DNA from: a virus
Direction: 5' to 3' (one strand)
Length of the DNA stretch: 64,000 nucleotides
IMG/VR virus record: IMGVR_UViG_3300030387_000087
Coordinates: 45,149-109,148 of that record
Shown: in pieces, positions 3,310-37,488 of the stretch
How the letters are laid out: each line of letters opens with the position of its first letter
How positions within the stretch are numbered: position 1 is the first letter of the stretch
Translations under genes and position numbers: made by a program
Notes under the pieces: generated by a model
Told to the model about the DNA's origin: nothing
The model's input: the letters and a program-made list of their open reading frames with translations, nothing else
The model's database searches: none

Positions 3310-3339
3310 ATGCGTGTTTCTTTGGAAAGGAAAATAATT

Positions 3340-3474
3340 ATGATAAAATGGAAATTATTTTGTACAGTAACAATGAAAAGCTATGAAGTAGAAGCTGAAA
3401 GTGAATTTAACGCACGAAAGAAATTAGCAAGTGAATTAAATGTACCATTATCTTGTATTGATGTGTTTAGATAA
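3340..3474 (+). CDS. small hypothetical protein (~44 aa)
   Basis: ATG after conserved leader motif tttctttggaaagg; not in track. Confidence 0.3.
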   Translation: MIKWKLFCTVTMKSYEVEAESEFNARKKLASELNVPLSCIDVFR

Positions 3475-3516
3475 GGTAAATAAATTCGCATTTCTTTAGA
3501 AGATTGGAGGAATAAA

Positions 3517-3693
3517 ATGAAATTTAATAAAGACGACAGAGTATTTCATAGAGGATTAAAAAGATATGGAATATATGTAGATGATGATTGGGCTTCCGAT
3601 GATAGTTGTTATGTTAAGTTTGACAACGAGGATAATCCGGATGATGTATTGTGTGTATCGAAAAACTGGTTAGATAAAGTAAAGGAGAAATAA
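3517..3693 (+). CDS. small hypothetical protein (~58 aa)
   Basis: RBS ttggagg + ATG; preceded by conserved leader motif; stop abuts next ATG. Confidence 0.35.
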   Translation: MKFNKDDRVFHRGLKRYGIYVDDDWASDDSCYVKFDNEDNPDDVLCVSKNWLDKVKEK

Positions 3694-3695
3694 AA

Positions 3696-3893
3696 ATGGG
3701 ATTAGAAGAGATTTTAAAAGAACTTGGTGCAGACATTCCCTTTGATGAGAAAGGAGATTTAACTTCAAATGGAGCTGACGCATATGAGAAGTTAATCAAT
3801 GTAGTAACAGGATTAAATAGTATTGGTGCTATTCAAGAGAAACCAGATGACATTGAAAGTTATTGTGATGAAATAGTGAGATTGGGATTCTAA
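3696..3893 (+). CDS. hypothetical protein, paralogue of 7966..8193
   Basis: shares LEEIL..LG..PF..GAxAYEKL with the 7966 ORF. Confidence 0.45.
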   Translation: MGLEEILKELGADIPFDEKGDLTSNGADAYEKLINVVTGLNSIGAIQEKPDDIESYCDEIVRLGF

Positions 3894-3931
3894 TGAAACT
3901 AAGATTTACTTGGTAAGGAGTGGTAATATAA

Positions 3932-4192
3932 ATGTATGAAGTAAAAGATAAAAATAAAGTAATCTATTTTACAAATAAGGCTGATGCAGATAATTATAAT
4001 GACTATTTGAAAAATGGATTAAAAGTTATTAGAACTCAAGGAAAAACCTATTATTTTAATAATGGGGACAGGTTATTTGATGTAAGTATATCAAATAAAA
4101 AGAATTATGTACTTGAAACACGGACAGACAGAACAGTTACAAGTGAAAAACTACAGAGAAAATATCTTGAATTAATTCAAATTAGCAACTAA
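3932..4192 (+). CDS. hypothetical protein
   Basis: ORF track; RBS aaggagtgg. Confidence 0.45.
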   Translation: MYEVKDKNKVIYFTNKADADNYNDYLKNGLKVIRTQGKTYYFNNGDRLFDVSISNKKNYVLETRTDRTVTSEKLQRKYLELIQISN

Positions 4193-4268
4193 ACACAATA
4201 ATGCAAAGGCAGTTAGGAGAATAATCTACTAGCTGCTTATTTTATTACAAGAAAGTGAGGAAACGATT

Positions 4269-4538
4269 ATGAGCAAATGGTTATATGATCCTGAAACGGA
4301 TTCACGGAATGGGAAAGAGTTTACTTATAACTCACCAATACATGAGAATGATATGTTATTTAATGGATTCACTTATAGAGAAATAATGGATTTAGTGATT
4401 GTAAATTGTGGTCACGATGTAACGGAAGCACATATCAATAAAGAAATCATTAAGCTTATGGAGTTAAGAACTGAGGAAATGAGAGAGAATTTGATAATGT
4501 GCAGAGAGAACATGTTGAAAGAAATTAGAAGGATGTGA
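4269..4538 (+). CDS. hypothetical protein
   Basis: ORF track; RBS aagtgaggaaa. Confidence 0.45.
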   Translation: MSKWLYDPETDSRNGKEFTYNSPIHENDMLFNGFTYREIMDLVIVNCGHDVTEAHINKEIIKLMELRTEEMRENLIMCRENMLKEIRRM

Positions 4539-8855: not shown

Positions 8856-9416
8856 ATGAAAGAGCCACTAACACGAACAATATATGACAATTATGATTTA
8901 TGGGATCAATATTCTGAATTTGCAAAGGAAACACTTTCAGAGTATGAAGAAGAACCAAGTGAAGATTCAATCTGGAATGTGATAAATGATGAAGATTCGA
9001 CAAATTGGGAATGTGAAAAAGAAAGGCTTGAAGAGTTCTTTAATGATGGAAGTACATGGATTTTGCGTGGTACAAATGGAAGATGGAATGGAACTTTTGA
9101 AGCAGGAACAATTTTCACAGACTTTATGGATATGTATAGAGAAGCAATGACTGATTGTGATTATGTTCATTTGTATGATGAGAATGGACATTTCTATATG
9201 CAGTGTTCCCACCATGACGGAACTAACTATTATGAGATTAGGAAACTTACGGATAAGGGAATTGAGTACCTTAAAAACTGGGAAGAAAATTGGGATGACA
9301 AGAGAAGTGAAAGGTATATATATGACCAGATTATGAAAAGATATTCAACACTTCCGAATTTTGCTCATAAAGTATATGGATGTCCAAAGGTAGAATGGAT
9401 GAAAGAGGTGGCGTAA
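8856..9416 (+). CDS. hypothetical protein
   Basis: internal ATG (MKEPLTR) directly after previous stop. Confidence 0.5.
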   Translation: MKEPLTRTIYDNYDLWDQYSEFAKETLSEYEEEPSEDSIWNVINDEDSTNWECEKERLEEFFNDGSTWILRGTNGRWNGTFEAGTIFTDFMDMYREAMTDCDYVHLYDENGHFYMQCSHHDGTNYYEIRKLTDKGIEYLKNWEENWDDKRSERYIYDQIMKRYSTLPNFAHKVYGCPKVEWMKEVA

Positions 9417-9444
9417 GCCATCTTACTTTTTTAAAAAGGAGTGA

Positions 9445-11750: not shown

Positions 11751-12104
11751 ATGAGTAAATTAAGAGTATGGTGGATTCCACAGGTAGGAGCAGATGGTGG
11801 AGCATTTTATATTCCAGTTAATACAGTAGAAGAAGGCAAAAAGATTATGGATTTATTGGCTGCTTATGACGCATTTCAGTTACAGAACAGAATTAAACCA
11901 GATTATTGCAATACAGGCGGTATTCAGATCTGGAACGAAGAAGAATCCGAATGGGAAGATTGGTGGATGGAGACGGAAGATGATTATTTCGATGATGTGG
12001 ATGATTATTGTGAGCAGTGCGAAAAGGCAGATGAGTTGGAAAATTTTAGAAGCAAACTGTTTAAGCAAATTGATTGGGATAAGATTCATAAAATGACAAT
12101 GTAA
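11751..12104 (+). CDS. hypothetical acidic protein
   Basis: internal ATG (MSKLRVWW) with RBS gaggttgag. Confidence 0.45.
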   Translation: MSKLRVWWIPQVGADGGAFYIPVNTVEEGKKIMDLLAAYDAFQLQNRIKPDYCNTGGIQIWNEEESEWEDWWMETEDDYFDDVDDYCEQCEKADELENFRSKLFKQIDWDKIHKMTM

Positions 12105-12145
12105 AGAAATAGCAATTTCAAGTGAAGATCGGAGAGTGATGATAT

Positions 12146-19114: not shown

Positions 19115-19277
19115 AACCATTCAAAATAACATTTGCACTAAAATTATTAAATGACAAATGTCATTATTATAATAACATTTATTTTTGAAAAAGTAAAGAG
19201 AAAATAAAAATGAAAAAAGAATTATTTATTAATAATGAAGAAGAAAGTTTCATTGGAAATGAAAGGAGAATATTAAA

Positions 19278-20091: not shown

Positions 20092-20352
20092 ATGTTATAT
20101 ACAGTAGTGCATACAGTAATCAATAATCAAGGCAAACATCCAGAATCCAACGCAAGGGTACTTGGAATATATTCGGATGAGAATGTTGCCATTAAAGAAG
20201 CGGAAAAATGGATAAATAATACAAAAACATCTGACATAAATGTAAAGAGAATAACAGACACAGAATGGTATTTTTGGTATGACGAAGATGGAAATACCTA
20301 TGGTGGTTATGTAGATGTATATGGGAAAGAGTTAGACAAACCAATTGAATAA
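20092..20352 (+). CDS. hypothetical protein
   Basis: ORF track; RBS ttggagga. Confidence 0.45.
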   Translation: MLYTVVHTVINNQGKHPESNARVLGIYSDENVAIKEAEKWINNTKTSDINVKRITDTEWYFWYDEDGNTYGGYVDVYGKELDKPIE

Positions 20353-20388
20353 ACCAAGTTTTCATGTGAAGAAAGGAGAATATAATGT

Positions 20389-20649
20389 ATGGGAGCAATA
20401 AGTTCAAAAGAGATAGAAGCAAAAATAGAAGATATTGCAATGCAAATTGAGGAATTATCTGCTATGGCTGGTGGTATGTTATACAAAGACATTTTAAATG
20501 AAATATCAGAATGTTTGTTGATTGAGTTTAAACCAAATATTATTAAAAGACTTGAAAATTTAAGAGACAGATATTCTAAAGAAGAGTTTTCATATAGGGG
20601 AATCGTTGAAAAAGCAATAGATATTGTAGATGATGTAAAAAATTGCTAA
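20389..20649 (+). CDS. hypothetical protein
   Basis: ORF track; RBS aaaggagaat. Confidence 0.45.
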   Translation: MGAISSKEIEAKIEDIAMQIEELSAMAGGMLYKDILNEISECLLIEFKPNIIKRLENLRDRYSKEEFSYRGIVEKAIDIVDDVKNC

Positions 20650-20688
20650 GAAATCTAAGTTTCAAGTTAAGAAGGGAGAATAATCATT

Positions 20689-20919
20689 ATGCATGTGAAT
20701 ATATTTGAAACAAAATCGGATGAAGAATTATCTGTATTATACGGACAATTTCTTGAAGCAGAAAAAATATCTGGTTTTCCAGATGATAACGAATTGGGGA
20801 AAATTAAAAAAGAATATGAAAAAGATTTCGGAGCAAATACTGTATTAATGCTTCAAATTGAATTGACTCATACAATAGCAAATAGATGGTTCATAGAACA
20901 TAGAGGCAAAGAAATTTAA
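20689..20919 (+). CDS. hypothetical protein
   Basis: ORF track; RBS aagggagaat. Confidence 0.4.
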   Translation: MHVNIFETKSDEELSVLYGQFLEAEKISGFPDDNELGKIKKEYEKDFGANTVLMLQIELTHTIANRWFIEHRGKEI

Positions 20920-20946
20920 CTTTCATCGGAAGATAGGAGTGATAAA

Positions 20947-25363: not shown

Positions 25364-25369
25364 TTATAA

Positions 25370-26737: not shown

Positions 26738-26939
26738 TCATTTCAGATATTAATTTATAATATCTAGTTAATCTTTCCTTTTGCTTATATAAGTGGACAT
26801 AATCACTTAAAAGAGAAACTATAAGATTGCTCATGGAACGATTTTCTTTTTGTGCGATTATACCGATTTCATTTTTTAAATCCTTCGGAATAGCAAAAGA
26901 CATTGTTGTATTTTTTTCTGATAATTGTCCTCTTGGCAT
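26721..26939 (-). CDS. ribbon-helix-helix (CopG/Arc/MetJ-like) DNA-binding protein
   Basis: N-terminal beta-strand-like TTMSFAIPKDLKNEIGIIAQKENRSMSNLIVSLL, typical RHH layout; second minus-strand gene. Confidence 0.5.
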   Translation of the reverse strand: MPRGQLSEKNTTMSFAIPKDLKNEIGIIAQKENRSMSNLIVSLLSDYVHLYKQKERLTRYYKLISEMKDDEK

Positions 26940-27021
26940 TTTGAATACCTCCTTTATGATGATTATTATAAGGTATATATGAACTTAATGTCAACTTTTA
27001 ATAAAAATTTATATAAACCTA

Positions 27022-27050
27022 TTGACAAGCTTATATAAACTATATATAAT
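27022..27050 (+). promoter_or_regulatory. consensus sigma70-type promoter TTGACA-N17-TATAAT
   Basis: perfect -35 and -10 hexamers with 17-nt spacer, ~45 nt upstream of the MazF-like gene; divergent from the RHH gene. Confidence 0.6.
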
Positions 27051-27094
27051 TCAAGGCATAAAGGACAGAATAAAAAGAAAGGAGGTTTGAGCAA

Positions 27095-27460
27095 ATGGAA
27101 ATTAATACATTTGATATTGTGAAAGTTGATTTTGGAAATATAGAATTTGCTGGAGAACAAGGAGGTATTCGTCCGGCAGTGGTTATTCAAAATGCATATG
27201 GAAACATTTATTCAGGAACGACAATAGTGATTCCTTTTACAAGTAAAATAAAGCATATTAAACAGTCAACTCATTCCTTCTTTCAAAAAGATGAAAGTAA
27301 GGGATTGACGCAAGATTCAATGATACTTGGAGAATGTGTTAGACAAATCTCAAAAGAAAGAATCTTAAAAAAGTTAGGAACTATTACCAAAATGCAAGAA
27401 AAGAAAAAAGTAAAAGCTGTATATGATGCAAATTTTGGTTCATTGGGAGAGGAGATATAA
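27095..27460 (+). CDS. MazF/PemK-family endoribonuclease toxin homologue
   Basis: FDIVKVDFGNIEFAGEQGGIRPAVVIQN..IVIPFTSK matches the PemK/MazF N-terminal core; RBS aaaggaggt. Confidence 0.65.
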   Translation: MEINTFDIVKVDFGNIEFAGEQGGIRPAVVIQNAYGNIYSGTTIVIPFTSKIKHIKQSTHSFFQKDESKGLTQDSMILGECVRQISKERILKKLGTITKMQEKKKVKAVYDANFGSLGEEI

Positions 27461-27461
27461 A

Positions 27462-27752
27462 ATGGAATATGTAGTAATGAGTCTGGAAGAAGCTAAGAAA
27501 GTAGCAAAAAAAGATGCAATAGTTTTGGTTTCAAAGCAGGATCTTGAAAATCCAGATTGTAATATTAGATTTACTAAGAAATATTTTGGAGAATGTAATA
27601 ATATTCTTGAAGAAGCTGCGAGTATTGCAAGGGTATGTGATGAATTTGCAAGTCAATTAAGAGTTTTTTCGGAAATACAAACGGGTGTTCCTAAAGGTTG
27701 TCTTCACACAATATTATACAATAAGTCCGATAAATTGGACTTGCAAAAATAA
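27462..27752 (+). CDS. hypothetical protein (possible cognate antitoxin, speculative)
   Basis: internal ATG (MEYVVMSLEE) after RBS ggagaggag, immediately downstream of the MazF-like gene. Confidence 0.4.
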   Translation: MEYVVMSLEEAKKVAKKDAIVLVSKQDLENPDCNIRFTKKYFGECNNILEEAASIARVCDEFASQLRVFSEIQTGVPKGCLHTILYNKSDKLDLQK

Positions 27753-27777: not shown

Positions 27778-27806
27778 TTGACAGAATATATGTTCGGATT
27801 TATTAT
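27778..27806 (+). promoter_or_regulatory. near-consensus promoter TTGACA-N17-TATTAT
   Basis: seen in sequence in a 280-bp non-coding region. Confidence 0.45.
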
Positions 27807-27814
27807 ATAAAAAA

Positions 27815-27852
27815 GGAACGGAATAGGCGCTCAAACCAAAAAATTCCGTTCC
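27815..27852 (+). other. GC-rich hairpin GGAACGGAAT-(18 nt)-ATTCCGTTCC just downstream of the promoter
   Basis: 10-bp perfect inverted repeat; candidate leader, attenuator or sRNA element. Confidence 0.4.
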
Positions 27853-28036
27853 AATACATATATCCCCTTAAACCAGGGAAAGGAATAAGGAAATATATTC
27901 TTATAATACAATTTTAATTGTATTATGTCAATAATGTTTTTCTTATTTTTTCCATATTTTTACAATAAATATTTAAATTGATTAACCTAGAAATCTTTAG
28001 GTTTATTAAAGTGCGTCAAAAAATCAGAGAGGAGTG

Positions 28037-28809: not shown

Positions 28810-29451
28810 ATGATTAATAAAGAGATGATGAGGATTATTAATAGTAATCCTGAGATGATGGCTGTTGTTAATTCGTATATGGAAAATGATATGAGAAAAC
28901 TCAAAAAAATATGTCATAAAGTTTGGTATGGGAAGTTCGATAGAAGTGATTATGATGAGTTATATGATGTGGCGGTTGATTGTCTTATAGAAACATTAAT
29001 TACATACAACAATGAAAAAGCTCGTTTAGAAACATTTCTTGTAGGAAATATCATGAGGAAGACAAGCACATGGATGCGAGATAATAAATATAGATTAAAA
29101 CGCCATAATCTTTTAAAAGACGAAAATGGGAAATTAATTCTTGATGAAAAGGGTAATCCTCAAATTGTTATGAATGTCTCATTAGATATGAATACAGATG
29201 AAGTGATAAATATTAAAGACAATTTACCTTCAAGAGAGAATGTAGAGAAAGAGATATTTTCAGAAGAATATACTGACAAAGTTGAATTATATTTACAGCA
29301 ATTACCACGAAAACAGGAAAGGGTAGCGAGGTTATTATCTCAACAATATACAAAAGATGAGATAGTAGAAATATTACATATAACAGTGAACGAATATAAC
29401 GATTGTTTAGCAGGGTTAAGATCTTATAAAAATGTTGCCATATTAATGTAG
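28810..29451 (+). CDS. sigma-70-family sigma factor-like protein (putative phage transcription factor)
   Basis: region-2-like YDELYDVAVDCLIETL..LETFLVGNIMRKTSTWMRD and region-4-like HTH RLLSQQYTKDEIVEILHITVNEYNDCLAGLRSY. Confidence 0.45.
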   Translation: MINKEMMRIINSNPEMMAVVNSYMENDMRKLKKICHKVWYGKFDRSDYDELYDVAVDCLIETLITYNNEKARLETFLVGNIMRKTSTWMRDNKYRLKRHNLLKDENGKLILDEKGNPQIVMNVSLDMNTDEVINIKDNLPSRENVEKEIFSEEYTDKVELYLQQLPRKQERVARLLSQQYTKDEIVEILHITVNEYNDCLAGLRSYKNVAILM

Positions 29452-29474
29452 TTAAAGAAGGGAGAAAAAAATAT

Positions 29475-31052
29475 ATGTTAATGCCAGTAAAACCAGTTAG
29501 ACCACAAACACTTACATTGAAGTCATATTTAGACAAGTTTAAAGAAGGTGATGTAAAGGGTGACGCAGATACCCAAAGGGCAATGGGGTGTTATACAGAT
29601 AGAATGTTCAATGAACTTGTCGTATCTGTTCTTATAGGAGAATATATTCCACCTCTAATTTTAGGAGAAATGTCTAATTTTTCAGAAAGTTATGTTGAAG
29701 ATGGCTTACAGAGAACAACCGCATTATCTATGTTTAGATATGGTAATAAAGCTGTTAGTAAAGATATTGCTGACAGCGAAATTGCTTATCAGGTTAAAGT
29801 TAAGGATAAAAATGGAAATTATAAACTTGATGGTAATGATAATTTTATAAAAGAGTGGGAAGTATGTGATATAAAAAATAAAACTTATAATCAGTTGCCA
29901 GAAGAGTTAAAGATGAAATTTGATGAGTACCAGATAGGATTAGCAGTTCATCCTGATTCAACCAAAGAAGATATATCCAGAAGAATTCGTATATATAACG
30001 AACATGAAAATATGAAAGCAGCTCAAAGAGCACTTACATATATTCCTACATATGCAAAAAATATAAAGAAAATAATATCTAACAATAGATTTTATAAGGA
30101 TTGTATTGAATATTCTGATAAGGAATTCACTAATGGCTTATATGAAAAAATACTTTGTGAAACGGATATGATTATTTACCATCTTAATGAATGGCAATCA
30201 GTGGTTAAAACAATGGGTATGTATATTGAAGATAATGCGAGTGAAGAAGAGTTTGAAAAAATAAATGCTTTAGCAACTAGATTATATAACATCTTAGGAG
30301 ATGATAAGTATAAAAATCTCTTTAGTAAGAAAAATACATATTTATGGACAGCATTATTTGAGAAATTCACAAAATATAATTTTGAAGATCGTATGTTTAT
30401 CAATTTCTTGAAAGAATTTAATGAGATTTTAGGTGATAAGAGAATTGATGGTTACGACATAAGTTTCAATGAATATGATAAAAAGAAGAGAACTAAAGAT
30501 AAGAAAGTCGTTAAGACAAAACTTGACATGCTTGAAAAACTCATGAAGGAATATTTACATATAACAGATGCAACAGAAGATAAGAACAAAACTACATATA
30601 ATAAGGAAGAAACTCATTCAGAAATGAATGAAAATACAACTGAAACAGAGAATAATATAAAGTCTTCTGATAATAAGGTAACAAATAATAATGAATCTGA
30701 ACAGAATACGGGTTGTGATGATGAAATATTATCATTTGTTAAAGAAAATGTTGCCGATGATATAGAGGATATTGATATAAAGGAATACCAGGATTTCGTG
30801 GATGTGTATTTAAAAATAGATAACCCTTTATATATACAATGCAAGGCAGCATTAATAGCATTAACAGCATATGCTTACAGAACCGAAAAGGATATTGAAT
30901 TGGCAACTTGGTTGGAAAATCATCAGAAGAATGCTATTGATAAGAACTACAGTTCGTCACAGGATGTTAATTACAAGTATATTAAGATGGATTTTGATAA
31001 TTACATAAATTTCTTAAATAATTCAAAGAAAGGAGAAATTATAAATGCCTGA
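29475..31052 (+). CDS. DUF262 / ParB-like (DGQQR-motif) domain protein with low-complexity Asn/Glu-rich region
   Basis: N-terminal EDGLQRTTAL motif (DUF262 DGQQR) preceded by Asp-rich nucleotide-binding-like segment; no recognisable HNH/DUF1524 C-terminus. Confidence 0.55.
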   Translation: MLMPVKPVRPQTLTLKSYLDKFKEGDVKGDADTQRAMGCYTDRMFNELVVSVLIGEYIPPLILGEMSNFSESYVEDGLQRTTALSMFRYGNKAVSKDIADSEIAYQVKVKDKNGNYKLDGNDNFIKEWEVCDIKNKTYNQLPEELKMKFDEYQIGLAVHPDSTKEDISRRIRIYNEHENMKAAQRALTYIPTYAKNIKKIISNNRFYKDCIEYSDKEFTNGLYEKILCETDMIIYHLNEWQSVVKTMGMYIEDNASEEEFEKINALATRLYNILGDDKYKNLFSKKNTYLWTALFEKFTKYNFEDRMFINFLKEFNEILGDKRIDGYDISFNEYDKKKRTKDKKVVKTKLDMLEKLMKEYLHITDATEDKNKTTYNKEETHSEMNENTTETENNIKSSDNKVTNNNESEQNTGCDDEILSFVKENVADDIEDIDIKEYQDFVDVYLKIDNPLYIQCKAALIALTAYAYRTEKDIELATWLENHQKNAIDKNYSSSQDVNYKYIKMDFDNYINFLNNSKKGEIINA

Positions 31053-31248
31053 TATAACAATGTGTACAAGTTCAACTTGCCAGAATAGAGAACAATGCTA
31101 TAGAGCTATGGCTAAACCAGATAAATATCAGTCATATGCTGATTTTACAAAATTATGTGCCGAGAAAGATTATCAGTGTATTTGGGGAATTAAAGATGGA
31201 GATGTTCTTACAAGTGATATGGATAATAATATTATGGCGAGGTGTTAA
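31045..31248 (+). CDS. small Cys-rich protein
   Basis: ORF track; MCTSSTCQNREQCY. Confidence 0.35.
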   Translation: MPDITMCTSSTCQNREQCYRAMAKPDKYQSYADFTKLCAEKDYQCIWGIKDGDVLTSDMDNNIMARC

Positions 31249-31251
31249 AAA

Positions 31252-31407
31252 ATGAATAAGGAAGAATTAAGAGAAGAATTACAGAATTATTCTAAACCAA
31301 AGCTTGTTGAGATGTGTATTAAGTTATTGGAAGAAAAAGAAAAGAGTCTGTCTGATAAACCTGCCACATATGACGAGTTATTAGAAATGGATTGGAATGA
31401 TAAGTAA
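31252..31407 (+). CDS. small hypothetical protein (~51 aa)
   Basis: ATG after RBS gcgaggtg; not in track. Confidence 0.3.
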   Translation: MNKEELREELQNYSKPKLVEMCIKLLEEKEKSLSDKPATYDELLEMDWNDK

Positions 31408-31422
31408 AAGGAGAATAATTAA

Positions 31423-31584
31423 ATGGAAGTATTTTTTATATTAGTTTTAATAGGATTAATAATTTTATGGTTTCTACTGTCAAGATTTTTTCAAAAAATA
31501 GGAAATTCTACTATTAATAAAATGAAAGATCTTGTAACAGATGAAATAAATAACGAAGAAGAAAAGGAGACAAAACAACAATGA
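31423..31584 (+). CDS. small single-TM protein (~53 aa), overlaps SPFH gene start
   Basis: RBS aaaggagaat + ATG; FFILVLIGLIILWFLL hydrophobic helix; stop overlaps the ATG of the SPFH gene. Confidence 0.35.
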   Translation: MEVFFILVLIGLIILWFLLSRFFQKIGNSTINKMKDLVTDEINNEEEKETKQQ

Positions 31585-32450
31585 AGAAAGTTGTAGGTGG
31601 CGTTGTATCTGCCATAGTGATACTATTTTTAGCAATAATTTTATTTAAGTCAACAGTTCGTGTACCTGCTGGATATATTGCCGTACAGTACAGTATGTCG
31701 GGCGGTGTAAAAGGAGATATTCTTACACAAGGATGGCATTTAAAGTCACCAACTGTAAAAACGACACTTTACTCGGTGAGTCTTGAACAGAGCTATTTAA
31801 CGTCCGGCAAGGACGGAGACTCTAAAGATGATGACAGCTTTTCAGCGAGTTCATCTGAGGGTAAGGCTATGCAGATAGATCTTACATTTACATATCAGTA
31901 CAGTCCTGATAAGATAGCTGATCTATTTACAAGATTTAGAGGACAATCTGGAAAGGAAGTAAGAGATAGTTTTATTAAGCCTAATATCATCTCTTGGACT
32001 AAGGAAGTTGTTGCTAACTATAAGGTATCAGATATTCTTGGTTCTGAAAGAGCAAATGTAAATACAGCATTAACTGATTACCTTAATAAGAAATTTGAAC
32101 CATATGGTATAGCGATTAGCAATGTATCATTGATTAATATTTCTGTAGACGAAAAGACACAGGAAGCTATTAATGCAAAGATTACCGCACAGCAAGCAGC
32201 AGAGACACAGGAGATAAATAATCAGACTGCTATTAATAAAGCTAAAGCTGATGCGGAGGTTGCTAAAACACAGGCACAGGCTAAAGCTGATGCACAGCTC
32301 ATAGAAGCTCAAGCACAGGCAGAAGCTAACAGTAAGTTGAGTTCTTCTATCACAGATGAACTTATAAGAATGAAGGAAGCAGAAGCAAGAAATAAGTTCG
32401 GTTGGGTTACAATTTCAGGAACAAATAATACAATTGTAACTGATAAGTAA
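31581..32450 (+). CDS. SPFH/band-7 (stomatin/prohibitin-like) domain membrane protein
   Basis: N-terminal TM helix; PAGYIAVQYSMSGGVKGDILTQGWHLKSP SPFH core; Ala/Gln-rich coiled-coil C-terminus. Confidence 0.7.
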   Translation: MKKVVGGVVSAIVILFLAIILFKSTVRVPAGYIAVQYSMSGGVKGDILTQGWHLKSPTVKTTLYSVSLEQSYLTSGKDGDSKDDDSFSASSSEGKAMQIDLTFTYQYSPDKIADLFTRFRGQSGKEVRDSFIKPNIISWTKEVVANYKVSDILGSERANVNTALTDYLNKKFEPYGIAISNVSLINISVDEKTQEAINAKITAQQAAETQEINNQTAINKAKADAEVAKTQAQAKADAQLIEAQAQAEANSKLSSSITDELIRMKEAEARNKFGWVTISGTNNTIVTDK

Positions 32451-32463
32451 TTAGAGAATATAT

Positions 32464-32486
32464 AGGTGTGGTGAAATTCCACACCT
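32464..32486 (+). other. 8-bp hairpin AGGTGTGG-tgaaatt-CCACACCT between SPFH gene and tRNA-Gln
   Basis: seen in sequence; no T-run, so possible processing site or weak terminator. Confidence 0.35.
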
Positions 32487-32492
32487 AACTAA

Positions 32493-32565
32493 TGGGCTGT
32501 GGTGAAGTGGTCAACACAACAGGTTTTGATCCTGTCATTCGTGGGTTCAAGTCCCACCAGCCTAG
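32493..32565 (+). tRNA. tRNA-Gln (anticodon TTG)
   Basis: manual fold: 7-bp acceptor stem with one G-U pair, anticodon stem ACAGG/CCTGT, loop TTTTGAT, T-arm GTGGG-TTCAAGT-CCCAC; CCA not encoded. Confidence 0.8.
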
Positions 32566-32569
32566 TTAT

Positions 32570-32642
32570 GTGCCATTAGCTCAGTTGGTAGAGCACTAGA
32601 CTTTTAATCTAGGTGTCACGAGTTCAAACCTCGTATGGCACA
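32570..32642 (+). tRNA. tRNA-Lys (anticodon TTT)
   Basis: manual fold: acceptor GTGCCAT/ATGGCAC, D-arm GCTC-AGTTGGTA-GAGC, anticodon stem CTAGA/TCTAG with loop CTTTTAA, T-arm ACGAG-TTCAAAC-CTCGT. Confidence 0.85.
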
Positions 32643-32671
32643 TTATTTATTATATTAGGAGGTATTTTAAA

Positions 32672-33049
32672 ATGAAAACAATAGACAACAAGTTTGAAAT
32701 TGGGGAAGAATGTTATACATATGCAAGAGAAAATGTAGAAGTTATTTGTCCAATATGTAAAGGAACAAAGAAGATTCTTTACAACGGATATGAAATTCCA
32801 TGCAAACAGTGTAATACAACAGGGAAGATTGTATGTAAACAGACAGTGGTTGCACCTCATAAGGTTAGAATTAGAAGAATTGTGGCTAGTATCTGGGATG
32901 AAGTAATCACAATTAAGTATAAGATTGATGCTGTTGATGATTATATTAATGTAAGAAATAGAGGAGAAAGTTCTTTATTTAAGACATTAGAAGAATGCGA
33001 ACAGAAATGTAAAGAGATTAATCAAGGTGAGAGTAGTGCTACATTTTAG
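32672..33049 (+). CDS. zinc-finger protein
   Basis: CPICKGTKK..CKQCNTTGK; RBS ttaggaggt. Confidence 0.45.
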   Translation: MKTIDNKFEIGEECYTYARENVEVICPICKGTKKILYNGYEIPCKQCNTTGKIVCKQTVVAPHKVRIRRIVASIWDEVITIKYKIDAVDDYINVRNRGESSLFKTLEECEQKCKEINQGESSATF

Positions 33050-33086
33050 CAGTAAAATTCTCTTTCTTTGGATTGTGAGGTGGAAT

Positions 33087-33320
33087 ATGACGTTAGAAAC
33101 TTGTATGGAGATAGGAAAAAGTTGCGGATTAACAAAAATAGAAGAATGTTATGATAATATTTATCTTCATTCTTCTATGATATTTAAATATCAGAATATA
33201 AACAAAGAAATTGAAGAATTACAAAGGGATATATTCTATCATGAACCTGATTTATTTTGTCAGATATTTGATAGTACAAAAGAAGATTTGATAAAAAAGG
33301 GATGGAAAATAAAAGAATAA
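33087..33320 (+). CDS. hypothetical protein
   Basis: internal ATG after gattgtgaggtgg leader. Confidence 0.4.
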   Translation: MTLETCMEIGKSCGLTKIEECYDNIYLHSSMIFKYQNINKEIEELQRDIFYHEPDLFCQIFDSTKEDLIKKGWKIKE

Positions 33321-33356
33321 AGAAATGCTTTTCTTTGGATTGTGAGGTGAAAATAA

Positions 33357-33779
33357 ATGGACAAAACAAAAATTAAAACAAAAGAGGTGTGGTCAGCTAA
33401 TAAGTGGTATCTATTTTTTGGAATTCTATTTGTGATTATGATTATCTTATTGGAGATGTGTGCAATAAGACAATTCTTTGTGACAGATACAGAAGAAGCA
33501 TTAGTGTTGCTCTTTATTTTACAACTGCCAGCTATGATTTGTTTATTATTAACAACGATGATTGGAGATTATATTCATAGAGAAAAATTCAATATCTATT
33601 ACTGTAAATTAGAAAATGGTATTGATATTGATTATATCAAAGAAAATTATTGTATAGAAGATATAAATAAGAGTTGCGTATTGTTTGTAGATAAAGGCAA
33701 CGATCATAATTTTTGTGTTTGGAATTTAATGCAAGGATATGATTCATTATATCAAGCAGAAATTAAAATGTTTTTATAA
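33357..33779 (+). CDS. membrane protein (2 predicted TM helices)
   Basis: WYLFFGILFVIMIILL and LVLLFILQLPAMICLLLTTMIG hydrophobic segments. Confidence 0.45.
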   Translation: MDKTKIKTKEVWSANKWYLFFGILFVIMIILLEMCAIRQFFVTDTEEALVLLFILQLPAMICLLLTTMIGDYIHREKFNIYYCKLENGIDIDYIKENYCIEDINKSCVLFVDKGNDHNFCVWNLMQGYDSLYQAEIKMFL

Positions 33780-33819
33780 CAAGAATGTTCGATTTCTTTG
33801 GAAGAGAGGCGAGTAATAT

Positions 33820-34017
33820 ATGAGTAATGGTGATATAGCATTAATTATTTTTTCAATCATTGGATTGATTATTTCGTATTCTGTTTTATGTAGTATGCCA
33901 GGAGATTTTTTGAAAGCATTTGAAGAAAGTTGTAAAGAGTCAATACATAAAAGAGATGAAGAATTAGATAAGAAAGATAAGATGAATAAAGAATTGCAAA
34001 GATGGTTATTTAGGTAG
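33820..34017 (+). CDS. small single-TM protein with charged C-tail (holin-like topology, speculative)
   Basis: IALIIFSIIGLIISYSVL then KRDEELDKKDK. Confidence 0.4.
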   Translation: MSNGDIALIIFSIIGLIISYSVLCSMPGDFLKAFEESCKESIHKRDEELDKKDKMNKELQRWLFR

Positions 34018-34059
34018 AAAGAAAACTTCGATTTATGTGAAATTTAGAAAGGAGACAAT

Positions 34060-34767
34060 ATGAATATCACAGCTATTTCAGTAGAAAATTTAGAAGAAAA
34101 TGGATTGGATTTATTACCTAATAAAATAGAATTAAAAGTACGAGGTAACATTTTCCCAGATACATATGGAAAGTGTATTGGTAGATATGATAAAACCAAT
34201 GACAAGTTTGAATCATTTTTTAAAAAGGATCAAGAGGCAGGAAATACTCGTTATTTTGATGAGTATAAAAAGAAATGCAGCCTTTATGAAAAACATAGAA
34301 TGGTATTTGAACCTGATGGAGATTGTTGCATAGAAAAGGAGATTGTAGACTATTATGTTATGTATAACATATTGGAAAGTAGTAAATTTAAGCCAACAAT
34401 AATCGAAGACCATGTTGATCATTCATACTGTATAAACGGAAGTTTTAAGTGTGAATATGAACTTTTATTTGCTTGTGATGGTGCTATAAGAAGAATTATT
34501 GTTCCATTTACTTCTGTAAATATTCCAATGTATGAATTTATTGGTAATTTAGAAGACATGGTAGAAGAAGTTCTTTATGAGGAATCAGACGAGACAAATC
34601 CATTTAATGATATTTTTAGAGATTGTGATGGATATTATGAAGTTACGATGTTTGATGAGATTGGTATGAATTGTGATATTGAAGTAGAAAGTGCTTCTGA
34701 TTTTATGGCTATGCTTGTGTCAGTTAGATTAGTGGGATATGAGTTTATTGAAGATAAGAATAAATAA
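34060..34767 (+). CDS. hypothetical protein
   Basis: ORF track; RBS aaaggagac. Confidence 0.5.
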   Translation: MNITAISVENLEENGLDLLPNKIELKVRGNIFPDTYGKCIGRYDKTNDKFESFFKKDQEAGNTRYFDEYKKKCSLYEKHRMVFEPDGDCCIEKEIVDYYVMYNILESSKFKPTIIEDHVDHSYCINGSFKCEYELLFACDGAIRRIIVPFTSVNIPMYEFIGNLEDMVEEVLYEESDETNPFNDIFRDCDGYYEVTMFDEIGMNCDIEVESASDFMAMLVSVRLVGYEFIEDKNK

Positions 34768-34901: not shown

Positions 34902-35906
34902 ATGACAAAAGATAATTATAGTATTTATAAACACACATCCCCAAGCGGTAAATCTTATATAGGAATTACAAAGCAAGGGAAGAAAAGATTTGGCAAAGAT
35001 GGAAATGGTTATAAAAAACAAAGAAAATTTTATAATGCTATTCAAAAATATGGGTGGGATAATTTTGAACATGAAATTATAGAAGATAATTTATCTTTTG
35101 AACAAGCCTGTTTTGGTGAACAACTATACATTGAGATTTATGATTCAATAAATAATGGGTACAATATTGCAATTGGAGGAGAGGGCGTACAAGAAATAGG
35201 AAATAGAAAGGTTGTGCAGCTCTCACAAGATTTAAAACCAGTAAACATTTTTAAATCAGTTTCATATTGCTCAGATGTAGTAGGATTTAAAAGTATTACA
35301 ACGATTAGTAATTGGTGTAATGACGGAAAACTTCACTGTGGATATTATTGGAAATTTTTAGATGAATGTGAAAATGTAAAAATTGAACATAGTTTATTTG
35401 ATGATACTATGGTGAATTATAACCATTTGAATTTTAATCCATATTCTGACAAAGAAGAAAAAATTCATAATTCTCGGAAAGGGAAAAGAAGTAATAGTAA
35501 ACGAAAAATAAATCAATATGCAATGGATGGAACTTATATACGAACATGGGATAGCATTATTGATGCGGTTACATATTATAAGATGCCGAATGATTCAACA
35601 ATTATAAGAGCAATAAAAAATAAGTACAATTGTTTTGGATACAGATGGACATATTACGATGGAAGTATTGTAGATATACTACCTAATATAACCAAGAACA
35701 AGAAAATTTTACAGTTTAATATAAATGGAGTTTTTATAAATAAATATAATAATTCCATACAAGCAGAAAAAGAAACTGGAATATCCAGAAAAAATATTAC
35801 TAGAGTTTGCAGTGGTGGAAGAAAAACAGCTGGTGGTTATATATGGAGATATGAAGAAAATATGTCTGATGAGGATTTGGATAAGGCACTTGCAGAGTTA
35901 GAGTAA
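34902..35906 (+). CDS. GIY-YIG homing endonuclease
   Basis: N-terminal YSIYKHTSPSGKSYIGIT..GKKRF (GIY..YIG..R) module and long basic C-terminal DNA-binding region; start at internal ATG (track ORF begins 34878). Confidence 0.7.
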   Translation: MTKDNYSIYKHTSPSGKSYIGITKQGKKRFGKDGNGYKKQRKFYNAIQKYGWDNFEHEIIEDNLSFEQACFGEQLYIEIYDSINNGYNIAIGGEGVQEIGNRKVVQLSQDLKPVNIFKSVSYCSDVVGFKSITTISNWCNDGKLHCGYYWKFLDECENVKIEHSLFDDTMVNYNHLNFNPYSDKEEKIHNSRKGKRSNSKRKINQYAMDGTYIRTWDSIIDAVTYYKMPNDSTIIRAIKNKYNCFGYRWTYYDGSIVDILPNITKNKKILQFNINGVFINKYNNSIQAEKETGISRKNITRVCSGGRKTAGGYIWRYEENMSDEDLDKALAELE

Positions 35907-35920
35907 TGTTTTATGGGCTG

Positions 35921-35953
35921 GCTGACGAACAGTTGGTCAGTCCTTTTTAATAG
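35921..35953 (+). terminator. rho-independent terminator after homing endonuclease gene
   Basis: GGCTGAC-gaacagttg-GTCAGTCC stem-loop followed by TTTTT. Confidence 0.45.
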
Positions 35954-35970
35954 AAAGAGAGGTATATATT

Positions 35971-36867
35971 ATGCCAGTACATGATGATTTAGGCGTTAGA
36001 ATGAAGACATTCTACGAGCAGATTCCAAAGACAAAGTTAATGAGAAGATGCCCTGTGGCATTGAGAATTGATGGGAAATCTTTTCATACATTCACAAGAG
36101 GATTTCAGAAGCCTTTTGATGAAGTTTTGATTAAATCAATGCAGGAGACTATGAAATATTTATGTGAGAATATTCAGGGTTGTGTTCTTGGATATACACA
36201 GTCAGATGAGATAACACTTATTCTTGTGGATTACAAGAAACTCACATCTTCAGCATGGTTTGACTATGAGGTACAGAAGATATGCAGTATTGCAGCAAGT
36301 ATTGCGACTATGGCTTTTAATAAAGCTTTTAGAAAAAATGTAAACGATTGGTGGTTTACTCCGTTTTCTGGCGTTATAAAAGAATTCCAAGAACGAGAAA
36401 CTTTATATAAAACATATAAAAATGCTATAGAAAAAGGTGCAATGTTTGATTGTCGTTGCTTTAATATTCCAAAGGAAGAAGTAACTAATCTTGTATATTG
36501 GAGACAATTAGACGCTACTCGTAATTCAATTCAGATGGTAGGTCAAGTCAATTTTTCACACAAAGAATTACAGAACAAGTCTTGTAATGAGATTCAGGAT
36601 ATGTTAATGACTCAGAAAGGTGTTAATTGGAATGATTTGCCTATTTATCAGAAGCGTGGAAGTTGCTGTGTAAAAGAAAATCATTTTATAGAAAATGAAA
36701 AAGGAACTCAAATATGTTTTTCGGAAGGGTGTTCAGATCCATTTGAAGATGAAGAAACTTTAACAGGAGTATATAGAAGTGGTTGGGTTATTGATACAGA
36801 AATTCCGATTTTTAAGAATGAAGGTAGAGAATATATAGATAGATTAGTCTATGTTGGTGAAGAATAG
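35971..36867 (+). CDS. Thg1-like protein (tRNA-His guanylyltransferase / 3'-5' polymerase family)
   Basis: ALRIDGKSFHTFT (Thg1 hRhDG+xFHxF motif) and GYTQSDEITLIL (Thg1 QSDE motif) seen in translation. Confidence 0.75.
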   Translation: MPVHDDLGVRMKTFYEQIPKTKLMRRCPVALRIDGKSFHTFTRGFQKPFDEVLIKSMQETMKYLCENIQGCVLGYTQSDEITLILVDYKKLTSSAWFDYEVQKICSIAASIATMAFNKAFRKNVNDWWFTPFSGVIKEFQERETLYKTYKNAIEKGAMFDCRCFNIPKEEVTNLVYWRQLDATRNSIQMVGQVNFSHKELQNKSCNEIQDMLMTQKGVNWNDLPIYQKRGSCCVKENHFIENEKGTQICFSEGCSDPFEDEETLTGVYRSGWVIDTEIPIFKNEGREYIDRLVYVGEE

Positions 36868-36881
36868 AAGGGAAGTACAAA

Positions 36882-37151
36882 ATGTTTGGATTAAAAGTGG
36901 CAAGTACACATGAAATAATTGAAAAATTAGAGGAATATGAAAAAGAAAATGGAGTCGGTGCAATAGTATCATTGAGTACAATGTGTAGAGGCGACAGAAC
37001 TGTTCAGTATGTATTTGAAATTGCAAATGATTCTGATGGGAATAGGGTATTAGCACCAGATAAAGATAGATACAAAAGAACTAAAATTGAAATATCTGCT
37101 GTATTGGACGATTCATTATTTCCAAATAGGTATAAAATTCCAAATAAATAA
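36882..37151 (+). CDS. hypothetical protein
   Basis: ORF track; RBS gaagggaag. Confidence 0.4.
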   Translation: MFGLKVASTHEIIEKLEEYEKENGVGAIVSLSTMCRGDRTVQYVFEIANDSDGNRVLAPDKDRYKRTKIEISAVLDDSLFPNRYKIPNK

Positions 37152-37201
37152 TTTTGTTAAGAAATTCACGATTCATGTGGAATTTAGAAAGGAAAGAATA
37201 T

Positions 37202-37447
37202 ATGGTTAGATATTTTTGCGATTTATGTGATAAGGAAGTTGATAAATATAATGAGTATTCGTTGCCGATTGCAGCCACTTTTATAAATGGTGAACCATAT
37301 GATTTAATTCAAGTTCCTGGGTTTAATTTGTGTAAAGATTGTAGAAGTAGGTTTTACGGAGTCGTTGAAAGTATTGTTCCAAAGCAGAAGATTGAAGAAT
37401 TAAATAAGAGGGCTTTGGATATAAAAATGGGAAGATGTGATGAGTAA
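37202..37447 (+). CDS. zinc-ribbon protein
   Basis: internal ATG (MVRYFCDLCDK..CKDC) after conserved leader motif. Confidence 0.4.
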   Translation: MVRYFCDLCDKEVDKYNEYSLPIAATFINGEPYDLIQVPGFNLCKDCRSRFYGVVESIVPKQKIEELNKRALDIKMGRCDE

Positions 37448-37488
37448 CAAGAATCGCACATTTCTTGCGGGAATTTGGAGGTGAAATT

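Follow-up and report, generated by a model that had tools for sequence, protein, structure and literature searches.

In phage T4, RegA and RegB exemplify a single phage factor that acts on ribosome-binding regions across many early genes. RegB is a sequence-specific RNase with a toxin fold that cuts in intercistronic Shine-Dalgarno (SD) regions, at GGAG itself; the sites bound by RegA show poor conservation and overlap with the start codon. T4-type phages carry promoter-bearing mobile cassettes, the promoter-early stem-loops (PeSLs; PMC2839356, PMC4122927), and short repeated motifs lie directly upstream of the start sites of phage two-barrel RNA polymerases (bioRxiv 10.1101/2022.12.01.518664). 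In SPbeta, transcription by YonO is limited to one late operon, and the YonO promoter is not known even there (PMC5467207); the same phage carries SPBRE, a repeated intergenic operator of the repressor MrpR (PMC10516654).

The element analysed here is a motif repeated along a 64,000-nt viral sequence (the window). Like the PeSLs, it is a short conserved, putatively regulatory sequence repeated between small variable ORFs of plastic regions (PMC2839356, PMC4122927), associated with an early-gene class and situated at insertion/deletion and replacement boundaries, whereby mediation of cassette shuffling has been proposed. However, PeSLs consist of a sigma-70 early promoter and a terminator stem-loop, whereas the motif has neither sigma-70 hexamers nor a stable or covarying stem-loop; moreover, the phage here belongs to a lineage unrelated to the T4-type and probably infects a Firmicute. 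With the phage polymerase promoters, the motif shares the form of a compact conserved repeat that precedes numerous genes of a single temporal class and the lack of sigma-70 hexamers, and a two-barrel single-chain RNA polymerase of the YonO/RdRP type is among the proteins encoded in the phage family. At ~15 bits, however, the motif carries far less information than T7-type promoters. SPBRE is likewise a repeated intergenic element in an early one-strand array of small genes of a large YonO-encoding phage, and SPbeta has a similar genome layout with divergent late and early blocks. In contrast to SPBRE, with ~10 copies in sigma-A promoter regions, the motif recurs more than 20 times in 64 kb, squeezed between a stop codon and the SD. 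Identity with SPBRE (core about AATATGTATA) was rejected, the sequences being unrelated and the motif matrix at chance level in SPbeta. The tyrosine recombinase of the window keeps its catalytic residues, with no specific similarity to MrpR. As for the T4 regulators, a toxin-fold RNase is also present here (MazF-like and conserved), but here a much longer conserved sequence is located 5' of the SD, and no RegA or RegB homologue was found.

The motif and its copies in the window

The consensus of both sub-families is (C)A(A/G)(G/T)AAA-N6-TTTC(T/A/C)T-NN-G(G/A)A, a direction-specific element of 26 bases with an A-rich arm, six variable bases, TTTC(T/A)T and then G-purine-A. Two leader strings given by an earlier note on this DNA proved to be sub-families of this single motif. 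The window contains 16 strong copies (at least 12 bits under a weight matrix whose training set was related contigs only) and ~10 variants. The enrichment upstream of genes, on which the earlier note had staked its claim, was found: each of the 16 strong copies falls in an intergenic region and on the gene (+) strand, where chance alone would give 0.5 per strand. At up to one mismatch, TTTCTTTGGA occurs 27 times in the window compared to 10.0 +/- 2.8 in shuffled sequence, and none of the 100 shuffles reached 27. After SD words, the most intergenic-enriched hexamers were TTTCTT, with 12 of its 31 copies in intergenic DNA, and TTTCAT, with 10 of 28, at an intergenic share of 9.4% of the window. 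The motif is the dominant non-SD intergenic signal.

All copies are on the + strand. The eight sites claimed previously were confirmed by sequence inspection and gene calls, together with their start codons: 3302..3328 (TTTC 3317, ATG 3340; 16.9 bits), 3476..3502 (TTTC 3491, ATG 3517; 18.9 bits), 33048..33074 (TTTC 33063, ATG 33087; 24.6 bits), 33315..33341 (a variant with 5-nt spacer; TTTC 33330, ATG 33357), 33778..33804 (TTTC 33793, ATG 33820; 23.5 bits), 34016..34042 (ATTTAT core variant; ATG 34060; 11.2 bits), 37156..37182 (ATTCAT core variant; ATG 37202; 14.5 bits) and 37446..37472 (TTTC 37461, ATG 37489; 17.4 bits). This count was, however, too low, and the motif exceeds the range of 3312-37481 and covers the whole window, since further copies were present at 14 TTTC positions. 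Upstream of the third of the eight sites, these are 12101..12127 (TTTC 12116, ATG 12146; 17.8 bits), 19233..19259 (a variant with displaced left arm before the first gene after a 196-nt gap; TTTC 19248, ATG 19278), 20345..20371 (TTTC 20360, ATG 20389; 16.3 bits), 20645..20671 (TTTC 20660, ATG 20689; 12.8 bits) and 20906..20932 (TTTC 20921, ATG 20947; 19.1 bits). The copy at 45871..45897 (TTTC 45886; 18.9 bits), upstream of a D12-class methyltransferase gene, is followed by a ~90-nt leader with ACAATATATAGTGG-type repeats, and that at 46871..46897 (TTTC 46886; 13.1 bits; conserved in L008) by ~250 nt without an evident gene. The others are 49434..49460 (TTTC 49449, ATG 49475; 16.8 bits), 51018..51044 (TTTC 51033, ATG 51061; 15.4 bits), 52691..52717 (a variant adjoining the SD, TTTCACAAGGAGG, also conserved in L008; TTTC 52706, TTG start 52726), 54202..54228 (TTTC 54217, ATG 54259; 15.6 bits), 56817..56843 (TTTC 56832; 81 nt before the first gene, at 56913, of an NAD-salvage cluster), 62304..62330 (TTTC 62319, TTG start 62348; 16.2 bits) and 62941..62967 (TTTC 62956, start 63003; 11.7 bits).

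The motif occupies the gap that runs from the stop codon of one gene to the ribosome-binding site of the gene downstream. The TTTC-to-ATG distance is tight, about 90% falling within 24-33 nt with a mode of 29; the earlier value of 10-25 nt upstream of the start roughly fits the 3' end of the motif but not this core. The upstream stop codon falls within the left arm, at -22 to -4, and after position 0 in none of 239 sites. In ~15% of sites of the window's own lineage, the SD starts 5-8 nt after TTTC. Intergenic sites comprised 68 "+ only", 30 "both-strand" and 4 "- only" cases, and the minus-strand block adjoining the window had one copy per locus, in minus orientation, before a minus-strand gene that neighbours the YonO-like gene. 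Leaders exceeded 50 nt in about 23% of the motif families, some without an adjacent ORF. No motif was found at genes directly after terminator-like hairpins (9445, 16311, 25424, 35971) or at genes with gaps below 20 nt, where translational coupling is probable.

The GAAA and TTTC blocks form inverted half-sites with centres 10 bp apart, whose pairing peaks in exact register (68% versus 53% when slid by 1), and a second dyad reads TTTC-N4-G(A/G)A(A). Neither of the two possible helices showed covariation, pairing being 68.3% versus 69.0% and 77.0% versus 76.2% in column-shuffled controls, and the folding z-score was -0.34. The motif is, therefore, not a conserved RNA fold. It had no Rfam match and was also rejected as an intrinsic terminator. 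Promoter searches gave no sigma-70 hexamers and no second conserved element 16-18 bp from either motif half, upholding the earlier view that sigma-70 -10/-35 character is lacking; conservation was likewise absent from -60 to -16 upstream. The N6 spacer sub-families, with mutual information peaking within -6 to -1, look like cassette lineages.

Distribution among relatives and candidate trans-factors

Across the family of ~150-kb human-gut phages, about one in two of the longer gene gaps contains the motif. Motif discovery in upstream regions, proposed in the earlier note as a check, was run by unbiased EM on 822 unique regions of related gut-phage contigs and recovered the same motif from most random seeds, with ~48% occupancy. 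Its density was 3.1-3.5 per 10 kb in relatives with a sigma-like protein 74-96% or 47% identical, and ~0.4 per 10 kb in unrelated viral contigs (raw 0.96; one seed match per control locus set aside). The related genomes are highly mosaic, and homology blocks shared with the window begin at -20 to -11 from TTTC (17 distinct positions over 26 sites), which means that the motif travels with the downstream gene; the site 34016..34042 is the start of blocks shared with 19 related contigs. The mosaic gene cassettes carry the motif at their 5' edge. In MT835469, a 176-kb genome of a distant relative, the motif was found before 17 of 87 plus-block genes, only early-type small ones, and 0 of 46 minus-block (late, structural) genes, and is thus a class-specific signal rather than a general ribosome feature. 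In this relative the motif directly adjoins the SD (TTTCAGGAGG, TTTCATGGAGG), leaving no room for a start site 3' of it, and the TGA of TGAAA often serves as the stop codon.

A perfect sigma-70 promoter, TTGACA-17-TATAAT (27022..27050, +), lies before the MazF-like/sigma-like block and shows the host-type promoter form in this genome. Strong sigma-70 promoters were confined to ~27 kb and a cluster upstream of the gene array, with few internal to it, which points to long polycistronic RNAs. The block encodes a PemK/MazF-family endoribonuclease (27095..27460, +), a candidate for acting at the RNA level, which is conserved across the phage family (47/47 loci, 10/11 loci of the 47% clade, and MT835469). 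The sigma-like factor noted earlier at 28810..29451 (+; 213 aa) is indeed a divergent sigma-70-family member, conserved in all relatives: it has a sub-threshold TIGR02937 match, its best PDB profile matches are sigma-H and FliA, the best Foldseek matches of its AlphaFold model are almost all sigma factors, and its homologues are named or typed as sigma-70. Its gene is always followed by that of a 525-aa GmrSD_N/DUF262-family protein (29475..31052, +), and the two are fused in MT835469 and P0132. Because of this linkage and fusion, the role of this candidate as an RNA polymerase specificity factor is only putative, and it may not act as a sigma.

Promoter, RNA signal or operator

The single most likely reading of these sequence data, at a probability of roughly 0.4, is a compact phage-specific promoter cassette. 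It fits the enrichment, the gene-strand orientation, the EM recovery, the density in relatives, the lack of an RNA fold, the travel with the downstream gene, the early-block restriction in MT835469, the confinement of strong sigma-70 promoters and the presence of a phage sigma-70-family protein and a YonO-type polymerase, and the long leaders suit a promoter better than a ribosome-site operator. The two-barrel polymerase motifs and the PeSLs offer precedents. Phage-specific promoters had already been proposed in the earlier note, but their specific link to the sigma-like protein is weakened by the missing 16-18 bp element, the adjoining SD in MT835469 and the DUF262 linkage and fusion. Against a promoter speak also the block spacings of 6 bp and 4 bp, off sigma-70-family geometry, the unconserved -60 to -16 region and the motif-free genes after terminator-like hairpins. 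Where the SD starts 5-8 nt after TTTC (MT835469 and ~15% of the own lineage), a start site 3' of the motif would remove it. Furthermore, YonO would be late by analogy to SPbeta, yet no late-block gene of MT835469 has the motif.

The tight TTTC-ATG spacing and the stop codon always upstream of TTTC are explained equally well by a signal acting on RNA, a somewhat less likely reading that comes close to the promoter. The motif would then lie within long polycistronic early transcripts made by the host polymerase from the upstream sigma-70 promoters, and might be either a site of endonucleolytic processing between stop and next SD by the phage MazF/PemK-like or a host RNase, giving separately stable, translatable units, or a binding site through which a phage repressor or activator of translation controls 30S access, like T4 RegA and RegB. 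Confinement of the core to untranslated spacer, strict mRNA orientation, the MT835469 arrangement of SD and stop, the scarcity of internal promoters, the conserved PemK/MazF-family protein behind its perfect promoter and motif absence at coupled gaps are all consistent with this. However, MazF-type RNases recognise 3-7-nt sites, not three blocks over ~26 nt, and TTTC(A/T)T is undepleted in coding sequence (about 37 copies versus roughly 28 expected by a hand estimate from base composition). Without covariation or excess stability, the motif is not a structured operator. The RegA-like translational operator suggested earlier is conceivable but fits imperfectly, as the motif lies upstream of the SD rather than over the start codon and ~23% of families lie over 50 nt away from any SD, a distance too large for an operator at the ribosome site though still compatible with processing; ribosomes terminating 4-22 nt upstream would also sweep a bound repressor off.

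A DNA operator, bound as a dyad by a phage regulator that silences or coordinates the cassette genes, appears improbable. The sigma-like helix-turn-helix protein with its DUF262 (ParB/Srx-fold) partner, a conserved and sometimes fused pair, would be the candidate binder, and KorB on OB sites and MrpR on SPBRE sites act in this manner in other mobile elements. The in-register GAAA/TTTC half-sites agree with it, and the second dyad gives a lead, its layout being that of ParB and Noc binding sites. SPbeta, also YonO-encoding, has a repeated intergenic operator of its master repressor (PMC10516654), albeit of unrelated sequence. Strong gene co-orientation is unexpected for a symmetric operator, the 27-45 nt spacers contain no visible promoter to regulate, and dozens of sites in one transcription unit would be unusual for a repressor. 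A conserved linker without its own expression function, kept by recombination shuffling the cassettes of co-infecting phages, is very improbable: it would account for block starts piling up at the motif 5' edge, genome mosaicism and lineage-like spacers, but a 26-nt patch sharing ~15 bits is a poor recombination substrate, and the strict orientation, fixed SD distance, late-block absence and conservation of particular bases across lineages with sigma-like proteins 28-47% identical point to selection on molecular function.

For the promoter cassette, we infer a motif read on DNA by the phage's own transcription machinery, not by the host sigma-A holoenzyme. The reading protein would recognise ~26 bp of double-stranded DNA as three blocks, A-x-(G/T)AAA, TTTC(T/A)T six bases on and G-purine-A, and transcription would start at or beside the TTTC core, about -1 to +8 from its first T. 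Each small gene or cassette of the one-strand array would thereby obtain a very short leader with only its Shine-Dalgarno sequence. Since this one sequence heads many unrelated cassettes, the motif may double as a homology patch for cassette exchange between phages. Most likely, it is a phage-specific expression signal, acting at either the DNA or the RNA level, that moves with each gene cassette.

Consensus, position and orientation of the element

The eight sites upstream of genes listed in the earlier note were all confirmed in the window sequence. Both of the strings given for them are genuine, but they proved to be variants of one motif rather than two motifs, and the window holds many more copies. 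When the upstream regions of the window and of related loci were anchored on TTTC, a consensus of 26 nt emerged, in which a G+C-rich spacer of six variable positions separates (C)A(A/G)(G/T)AAA from TTTC(T/A/C)T, and two further variable positions separate the latter from G(G/A)A. SD words aside, TTTCTT and TTTCAT were the hexamers most enriched intergenically. To avoid circularity, the matrix was trained on the related loci alone and then used to scan the window, whose intergenic share is 9.4%. The scan gave 16 plus-strand matches of at least 12 bits, every one of them intergenic (0.5 expected). The unbiased motif discovery proposed there led to the same element: in 822 unique regions, each covering −60 to −11 relative to a start codon, EM run without an anchor recovered it from most random seeds, with about 48% occupancy. 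An IMG/VR scan for GAAANNNNNNTTTCTTTGGA was uninformative, the matches listed being mostly single chance matches. Overall, the finding is real, statistically strong and wider than first reported.

Positions within the element are counted from the first T of the TTTC core. The distance from TTTC to the start codon is 24–33 nt in about 90% of close-coupled sites (mode 29). Most sites have their first SD-like tetramer starting between +12 and +19, and a minority between +6 and +8. The upstream stop codon ranges from −22 to −4, peaking at −16 and −10, and never falls past the TTTC core; it lies therefore inside the A-rich arm, which accounts for the alternation of G and T at −10 (GAAA versus TAAA). 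Around 23% of the motif families have leaders longer than 50 nt or no adjacent ORF. The orientation tracks the genes, with 68 intergenic sites scored as plus only, 30 as both-strand and 4 as minus only. In the neighbouring minus-strand block a single copy was found per locus, in minus orientation, before the minus-strand gene adjoining that of a YonO-like protein.

A second recurrent element, (A)ACACAATATATAGTGG, which includes the −10-like word TATA(G/A)T, occurs in 1–2 copies in the long leaders after some motif copies (window 45897–45985 and 56843–56912; leaders L160:5271 and L173:3316 of related loci). The motif copy at 46886 is followed by about 235 nt (46898–47132) without a convincing ORF, conserved in the related locus L008 and purine-rich (GGTGAAAAGGTAAAGGTGAAG). 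This stretch folds slightly better than its shuffles (z −1.84), and even a relaxed threshold gave it no Rfam match. It could represent either a long leader or a small RNA. Many genes window-wide end in GGAGAATAA (e.g., 48150–48170, 53890–53910 and 57410–57430), a sequence that provides their stop codon together with the SD (GGAG) of the tightly coupled gene that follows. Intergenic spacers and their flanks are strongly enriched in GAGAATA (18 of 51 copies).

The window has a G+C content of 29–34%, and nearly all its genes lie on the plus strand with strong Firmicute-type SD sequences. It is one of a large family of viral contigs from the human gut, roughly 90–220 kb in length. No close relative was found among 50,697 deposited phage genomes, and the cassette gene 34060–34767 had neither near nor protein matches in cultured phages; its protein is common to 19 IMG/VR loci (86–92% identity). 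The sigma-like protein encoded at 28810–29451 is common to 63 loci (47–96% identity), and the one in MT835469 (176 kb), the sole GenBank relative, is 28.6% identical. One homologue, annotated in a MAG of Lachnospira eligens, points tentatively to a Lachnospiraceae host; a prophage/host search of GTDB genomes with the same protein gave no match.

Among the products of the window are a Thg1-like enzyme, RlaP, a CCA-adding enzyme, a Sir2-like protein (40356–41096), a C5 methylase, a tyrosine recombinase and a PemK/MazF-like protein. The genes for tRNA-Gln(UUG) and tRNA-Lys(UUU) (32493–32643) are near the tRNA repair/maturation set of Thg1-like guanylyltransferase, RlaP and CCA-adding enzyme (35971–40285), and RNA ligase genes lie just outside the window, in L205 and L206. 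This combination suggests counter-defence against tRNA-cleaving host nucleases. A cluster for NAD+ salvage/regeneration (56913–61950: isochorismatase/PncA-like, PRPP-synthase-like, NAMPT, NADAR and NAD synthase) has a motif copy 81 nt upstream of its head. The ORF of a D12-class adenine methyltransferase (46030–46872) has a TTG start without SD, and a good SD–ATG at 45984 is in a different frame (45984–46072); the discrepancy could come from a frameshift, a sequencing indel or a mis-called start.

RNA structure and host-type signals

The motif contains two dyads, GAAA-N6-TTTC and TTTC-N4-GAAA, and certain copies appear compensated; the orthologue set of gene 34060, for example, has TTTC/GAAA, ATTC/GAAT and ATTT/AAAT variants. 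The arms of the first dyad (9 pairs) were paired in 68.3% of cells compared to 69.0% in the column-shuffled control, and those of the second (5 pairs) in 77.0% compared to 76.2%. Family-wide, no measure of covariation rose above column-shuffled controls. The hairpin AAGAAA-N6-TTTCTT, examined by permutation on 75, 153 and 412 sites and by pair counts on 80 family representatives, was rejected since its pairing was no better than that of shuffled columns, despite compensated-looking copies such as ATGAAA/TTTCAT and AGTAAAT/ATTTACT. The hairpin TTTC-N4-GAAA was rejected likewise, family-wide pairing being without excess. One third of the sites have a T–C mismatch at the −10/+3 pair, and the arms are AU-rich. 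Although TTTC pairs downstream in 47 of 75 minimum-energy folds, the leaders folded no better than shuffled sequence (z −0.34), by which sequestration of the SD by the pyrimidine core as an anti-SD mimic was rejected. Rfam found two tRNAs and nothing else in the window, so that the motif has neither an Rfam family nor a covariation-supported fold. Mutual information was highest inside the N6 spacer, which defines cassette sub-families. With pairing and covariation at the shuffled level, the motif is not a conserved RNA fold; it is a linear, partly palindromic sequence signal.

The remark in the earlier note that the sites lack sigma-70 −10/−35 character was borne out: a consensus scan (TTGACA-like −35 and TATAAT-like −10, 16–18 bp apart) matched none of them, and found perfect sigma-70 promoters in the window at 26965–27050 and 27778–27931 only. 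There were no conserved positions from −60 to −16, and an upstream −35-like element was rejected, neither position-specific information nor k-mer enrichment revealing one from −60 to −13. An ECF/sigma-H-type promoter, defined as two elements about 11–17 bp apart with the start site 6–9 nt past the downstream element and before the SD, was rejected on the block spacings within the motif (6 and 4 bp) and the lack of a further upstream element. Taking A(A/G)GAAA and G(A/G)A(A/T) as the element pair places the predicted start within or after the SD. An intrinsic terminator was rejected as well, the scan matching 651, 9405, 16257, 25368 and 35915 and no motif copy.

Terminator-like G+C-rich hairpins with U tracts (9405–9424, 16257–16284, 25368–25394, 35915–35943 and about 17290–17320) abut the SD of the next gene, with no space for a promoter; CAGT(C/A)TCTTATTTTTATG is common to the hairpins at 16257 and ~17300. 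These hairpins are either leaky/regulated terminators or else RNA-end stabilisers. A 2.7-kb non-coding region between divergent gene blocks heads the array in a related locus (L208:3643–6356; window coordinates about −5600 to −2900), with many GATTTTT-type repeats and 3–4 tandem strong TTGACA-N17-TATAAT promoters that alternate with AGTCAAGC(G/A) repeats. Early control is its probable role, and it may also be an origin.

Mosaic spread and comparison with known systems

The related genomes are mosaics, whose homology blocks start at −20 to −11 from TTTC (17 distinct positions over 26 sites) and have scattered ends, from 0 to +30. As the blocks start at the 5′ side of the motif, the moving unit is motif–SD–gene. 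Motif density was 3.1–3.5 per 10 kb in the close clade and the 47% clade alike, compared to about 0.4 per 10 kb in unrelated contigs with the seed match per control locus set aside (raw output 0.96). The variant in MT835469, (A)TGAAA-N6-TTTCA, directly adjoins the SD (TTTCAGGAGG, TTTCATGGAGG), and its TGA is often the stop codon of the upstream gene. Throughout this complete genome, with counts limited to gaps of at least 22 nt, the strict pattern preceded 17 of the 87 SD-led plus-strand genes of the small-gene block and none of the 46 minus-strand large structural genes (Fisher p ~4e-4, hand calculation); late-block spacers have ordinary G+C-rich terminators in its place. An over-loose regular expression on MT835469 returned noise only. 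Because of this split between gene classes, the motif counts as a class-specific signal rather than as a feature of ribosome-binding sites in general. Overall, the element is a class-specific phage regulatory cassette and also a marker of mosaic junctions, new in sequence and known in kind.

The T4 PeSLs (promoter-early stem-loops) are a close evolutionary analogue (PMC2839356, PMC4122927). Like T4-type PeSLs, the motif lies in plastic regions, at the junctions where small ORFs have been inserted, deleted or replaced. Unlike these combinations of a sigma-70 early promoter with a terminator stem-loop, it has no sigma-70 hexamers and pairs as shuffled controls do. Phage SPbeta shares the divergent late and early blocks and a YonO-type gene on the strand opposite the small-gene array. 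The motif is not the SPBRE operator of SPbeta (15 bp, in sigma-A promoter regions; PMC10516654), and identity with it was rejected on sequence; AATATGTATA is the word common to 9 of 10 upstream regions bound by the MrpR repressor. On SPbeta, the motif matrix gave chance-level matches, mostly inside genes, and the motif was not found near the YonO start region. The tyrosine recombinase of the window was rejected as an MrpR-like degenerate repressor, since its catalytic R, H-x-x-R, H and Y look intact.

Candidate factors and mechanism

The earlier note had called the product of 28810–29451 sigma-like, and profile and predicted-structure searches place it as a divergent member of the sigma-70 family. 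Its TIGR02937 match is below threshold; sigma-H and FliA came top in a PDB profile search, and its AlphaFold model (pLDDT 74, two helical domains) had sigma factors as nearly all of the top 50 Foldseek matches. The gene is always followed by that of a 525-aa GmrSD_N/DUF262 (ParB/Srx-fold) family protein (window 28810–31052 for the pair). The two are fused in MT835469 (766-aa ORF, 30703–33000) and in protein P0132 (Sigma70_r2, Sigma70_r4_2, GmrSD_N), the fused polypeptides spanning 740–766 aa. We know of no described sigma–DUF262 fusion. Relatives also encode, on the minus strand about 9 kb upstream of the window and opposite to the small-gene array, a YonO/RdRP-type two-barrel single-chain RNA polymerase of 812–922 aa (L207:1–1826 and L208:1–447; PF05183 45.8 bits, ADFDGD motif, 22.8% identity to SPbeta YonO, E 2e-12). 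The phage family thus encodes its own RNA polymerase, of YonO type, and a specificity-factor candidate of the sigma-70 family. Also conserved family-wide, including MT835469, is a PemK/MazF-family RNase with a perfect sigma-70 promoter in front of its gene; in the window, divergent perfect promoters at 26965–26994 (−) and 27022–27050 (+) drive a small RHH-like gene (−) and the MazF-like gene 27095–27460 (+). The MazF-like gene is in all relatives, and the 96-aa gene downstream in 6 of 47 loci only (window 26721–27752).

Judged from sequence, the leading reading is that the element would be a promoter, with a probability of roughly 0.4. Repeated intergenic motifs of ~25 nt in phages are usually promoters, and this one is directional, class-specific, tied to cassettes and found in a phage with transcription proteins of its own. 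The ~23% of families with long leaders or without an adjacent ORF also speak for it, as do the T4 PeSL analogue (PMC2839356, PMC4122927) and the precedent of two-barrel phage polymerases, which use motifs of this sort (10.1101/2022.12.01.518664). Against a promoter stand the lack of a −35 partner and a block spacing unlike sigma-70-family geometry; moreover, the sigma-like protein may not act as a sigma factor. At sites where motif and SD adjoin, the SD would be lost from any transcript starting downstream, so that transcription would be forced to begin at TTTC or before. How YonO finds its genes was left open by the original paper, in which the SPbeta enzyme serves a single late operon whose promoter is undefined (PMC5467207), yet the motif avoids the late block. 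A narrower version of the promoter reading is unlikely: a promoter or loading site of an undescribed transcription system in large Firmicute gut phages, read by the YonO-type polymerase or by the sigma-like protein with its DUF262/ParB-fold domain. To our knowledge, promoter specificity is not known for a YonO-type single-chain RNA polymerase in any system.

A more tentative proposal is a signal acting on RNA, through processing between cistrons or control of 30S access, which would account for the strict stop codon-to-SD placement and the tight spacing. This proposal would require a linear recognition site of unusual length, the pairing and folding tests lend it no structural support, and long-leader copies fit its processing version only. 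In RegA-type control, a phage repressor binds many early mRNAs at a site that overlaps the SD or the start codon; the motif lies next to the SD and not over the start codon, 23% of its families are more than 50 nt from the start, and no RegA homologue was seen. MazF/PemK enzymes recognise short (3–7 nt) single-stranded sequences. An RNase of this kind is present and conserved here; the conserved signal extends over ~26 nt, and coding sequence shows no depletion of the core hexamer.

A DNA operator is rather improbable. The parS/NBS-type sites are 14–16-bp perfect palindromes bound by the HTH of a ParB/Srx-domain protein; the TTTC-N4-GAAA layout presumably resembles parS and NBS sequences, and both the dyad and the neighbouring ParB/Srx-fold (GmrSD_N) protein would fit. 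The palindrome of the motif, however, is imperfect with a variable centre, the sites are strongly oriented, there is no promoter to regulate, and the element is not SPBRE (PMC10516654). Finally, a pure recombination linker is very improbable.

If the element is a promoter, dozens of accessory genes would form one regulon in a family of ~150-kb human-gut phages that is abundant and uncultured, and there would be a concrete DNA target for testing how YonO-type polymerases or the unusual sigma–DUF262 protein locate genes. If true, the version with an undescribed transcription system would supply the YonO-type polymerase family with its first promoter consensus and specificity factor, or else reveal a new sigma architecture. 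Should the element act at the RNA level, Firmicute phages would have in it a counterpart of the global early-mRNA control of the T4 RegA/RegB type. The motif is a practical annotation marker for cassette boundaries and gene starts in these genomes. Either way, it joins the T4 PeSLs as a second independent case of a short regulatory cassette expressing and shuffling phage accessory genes.
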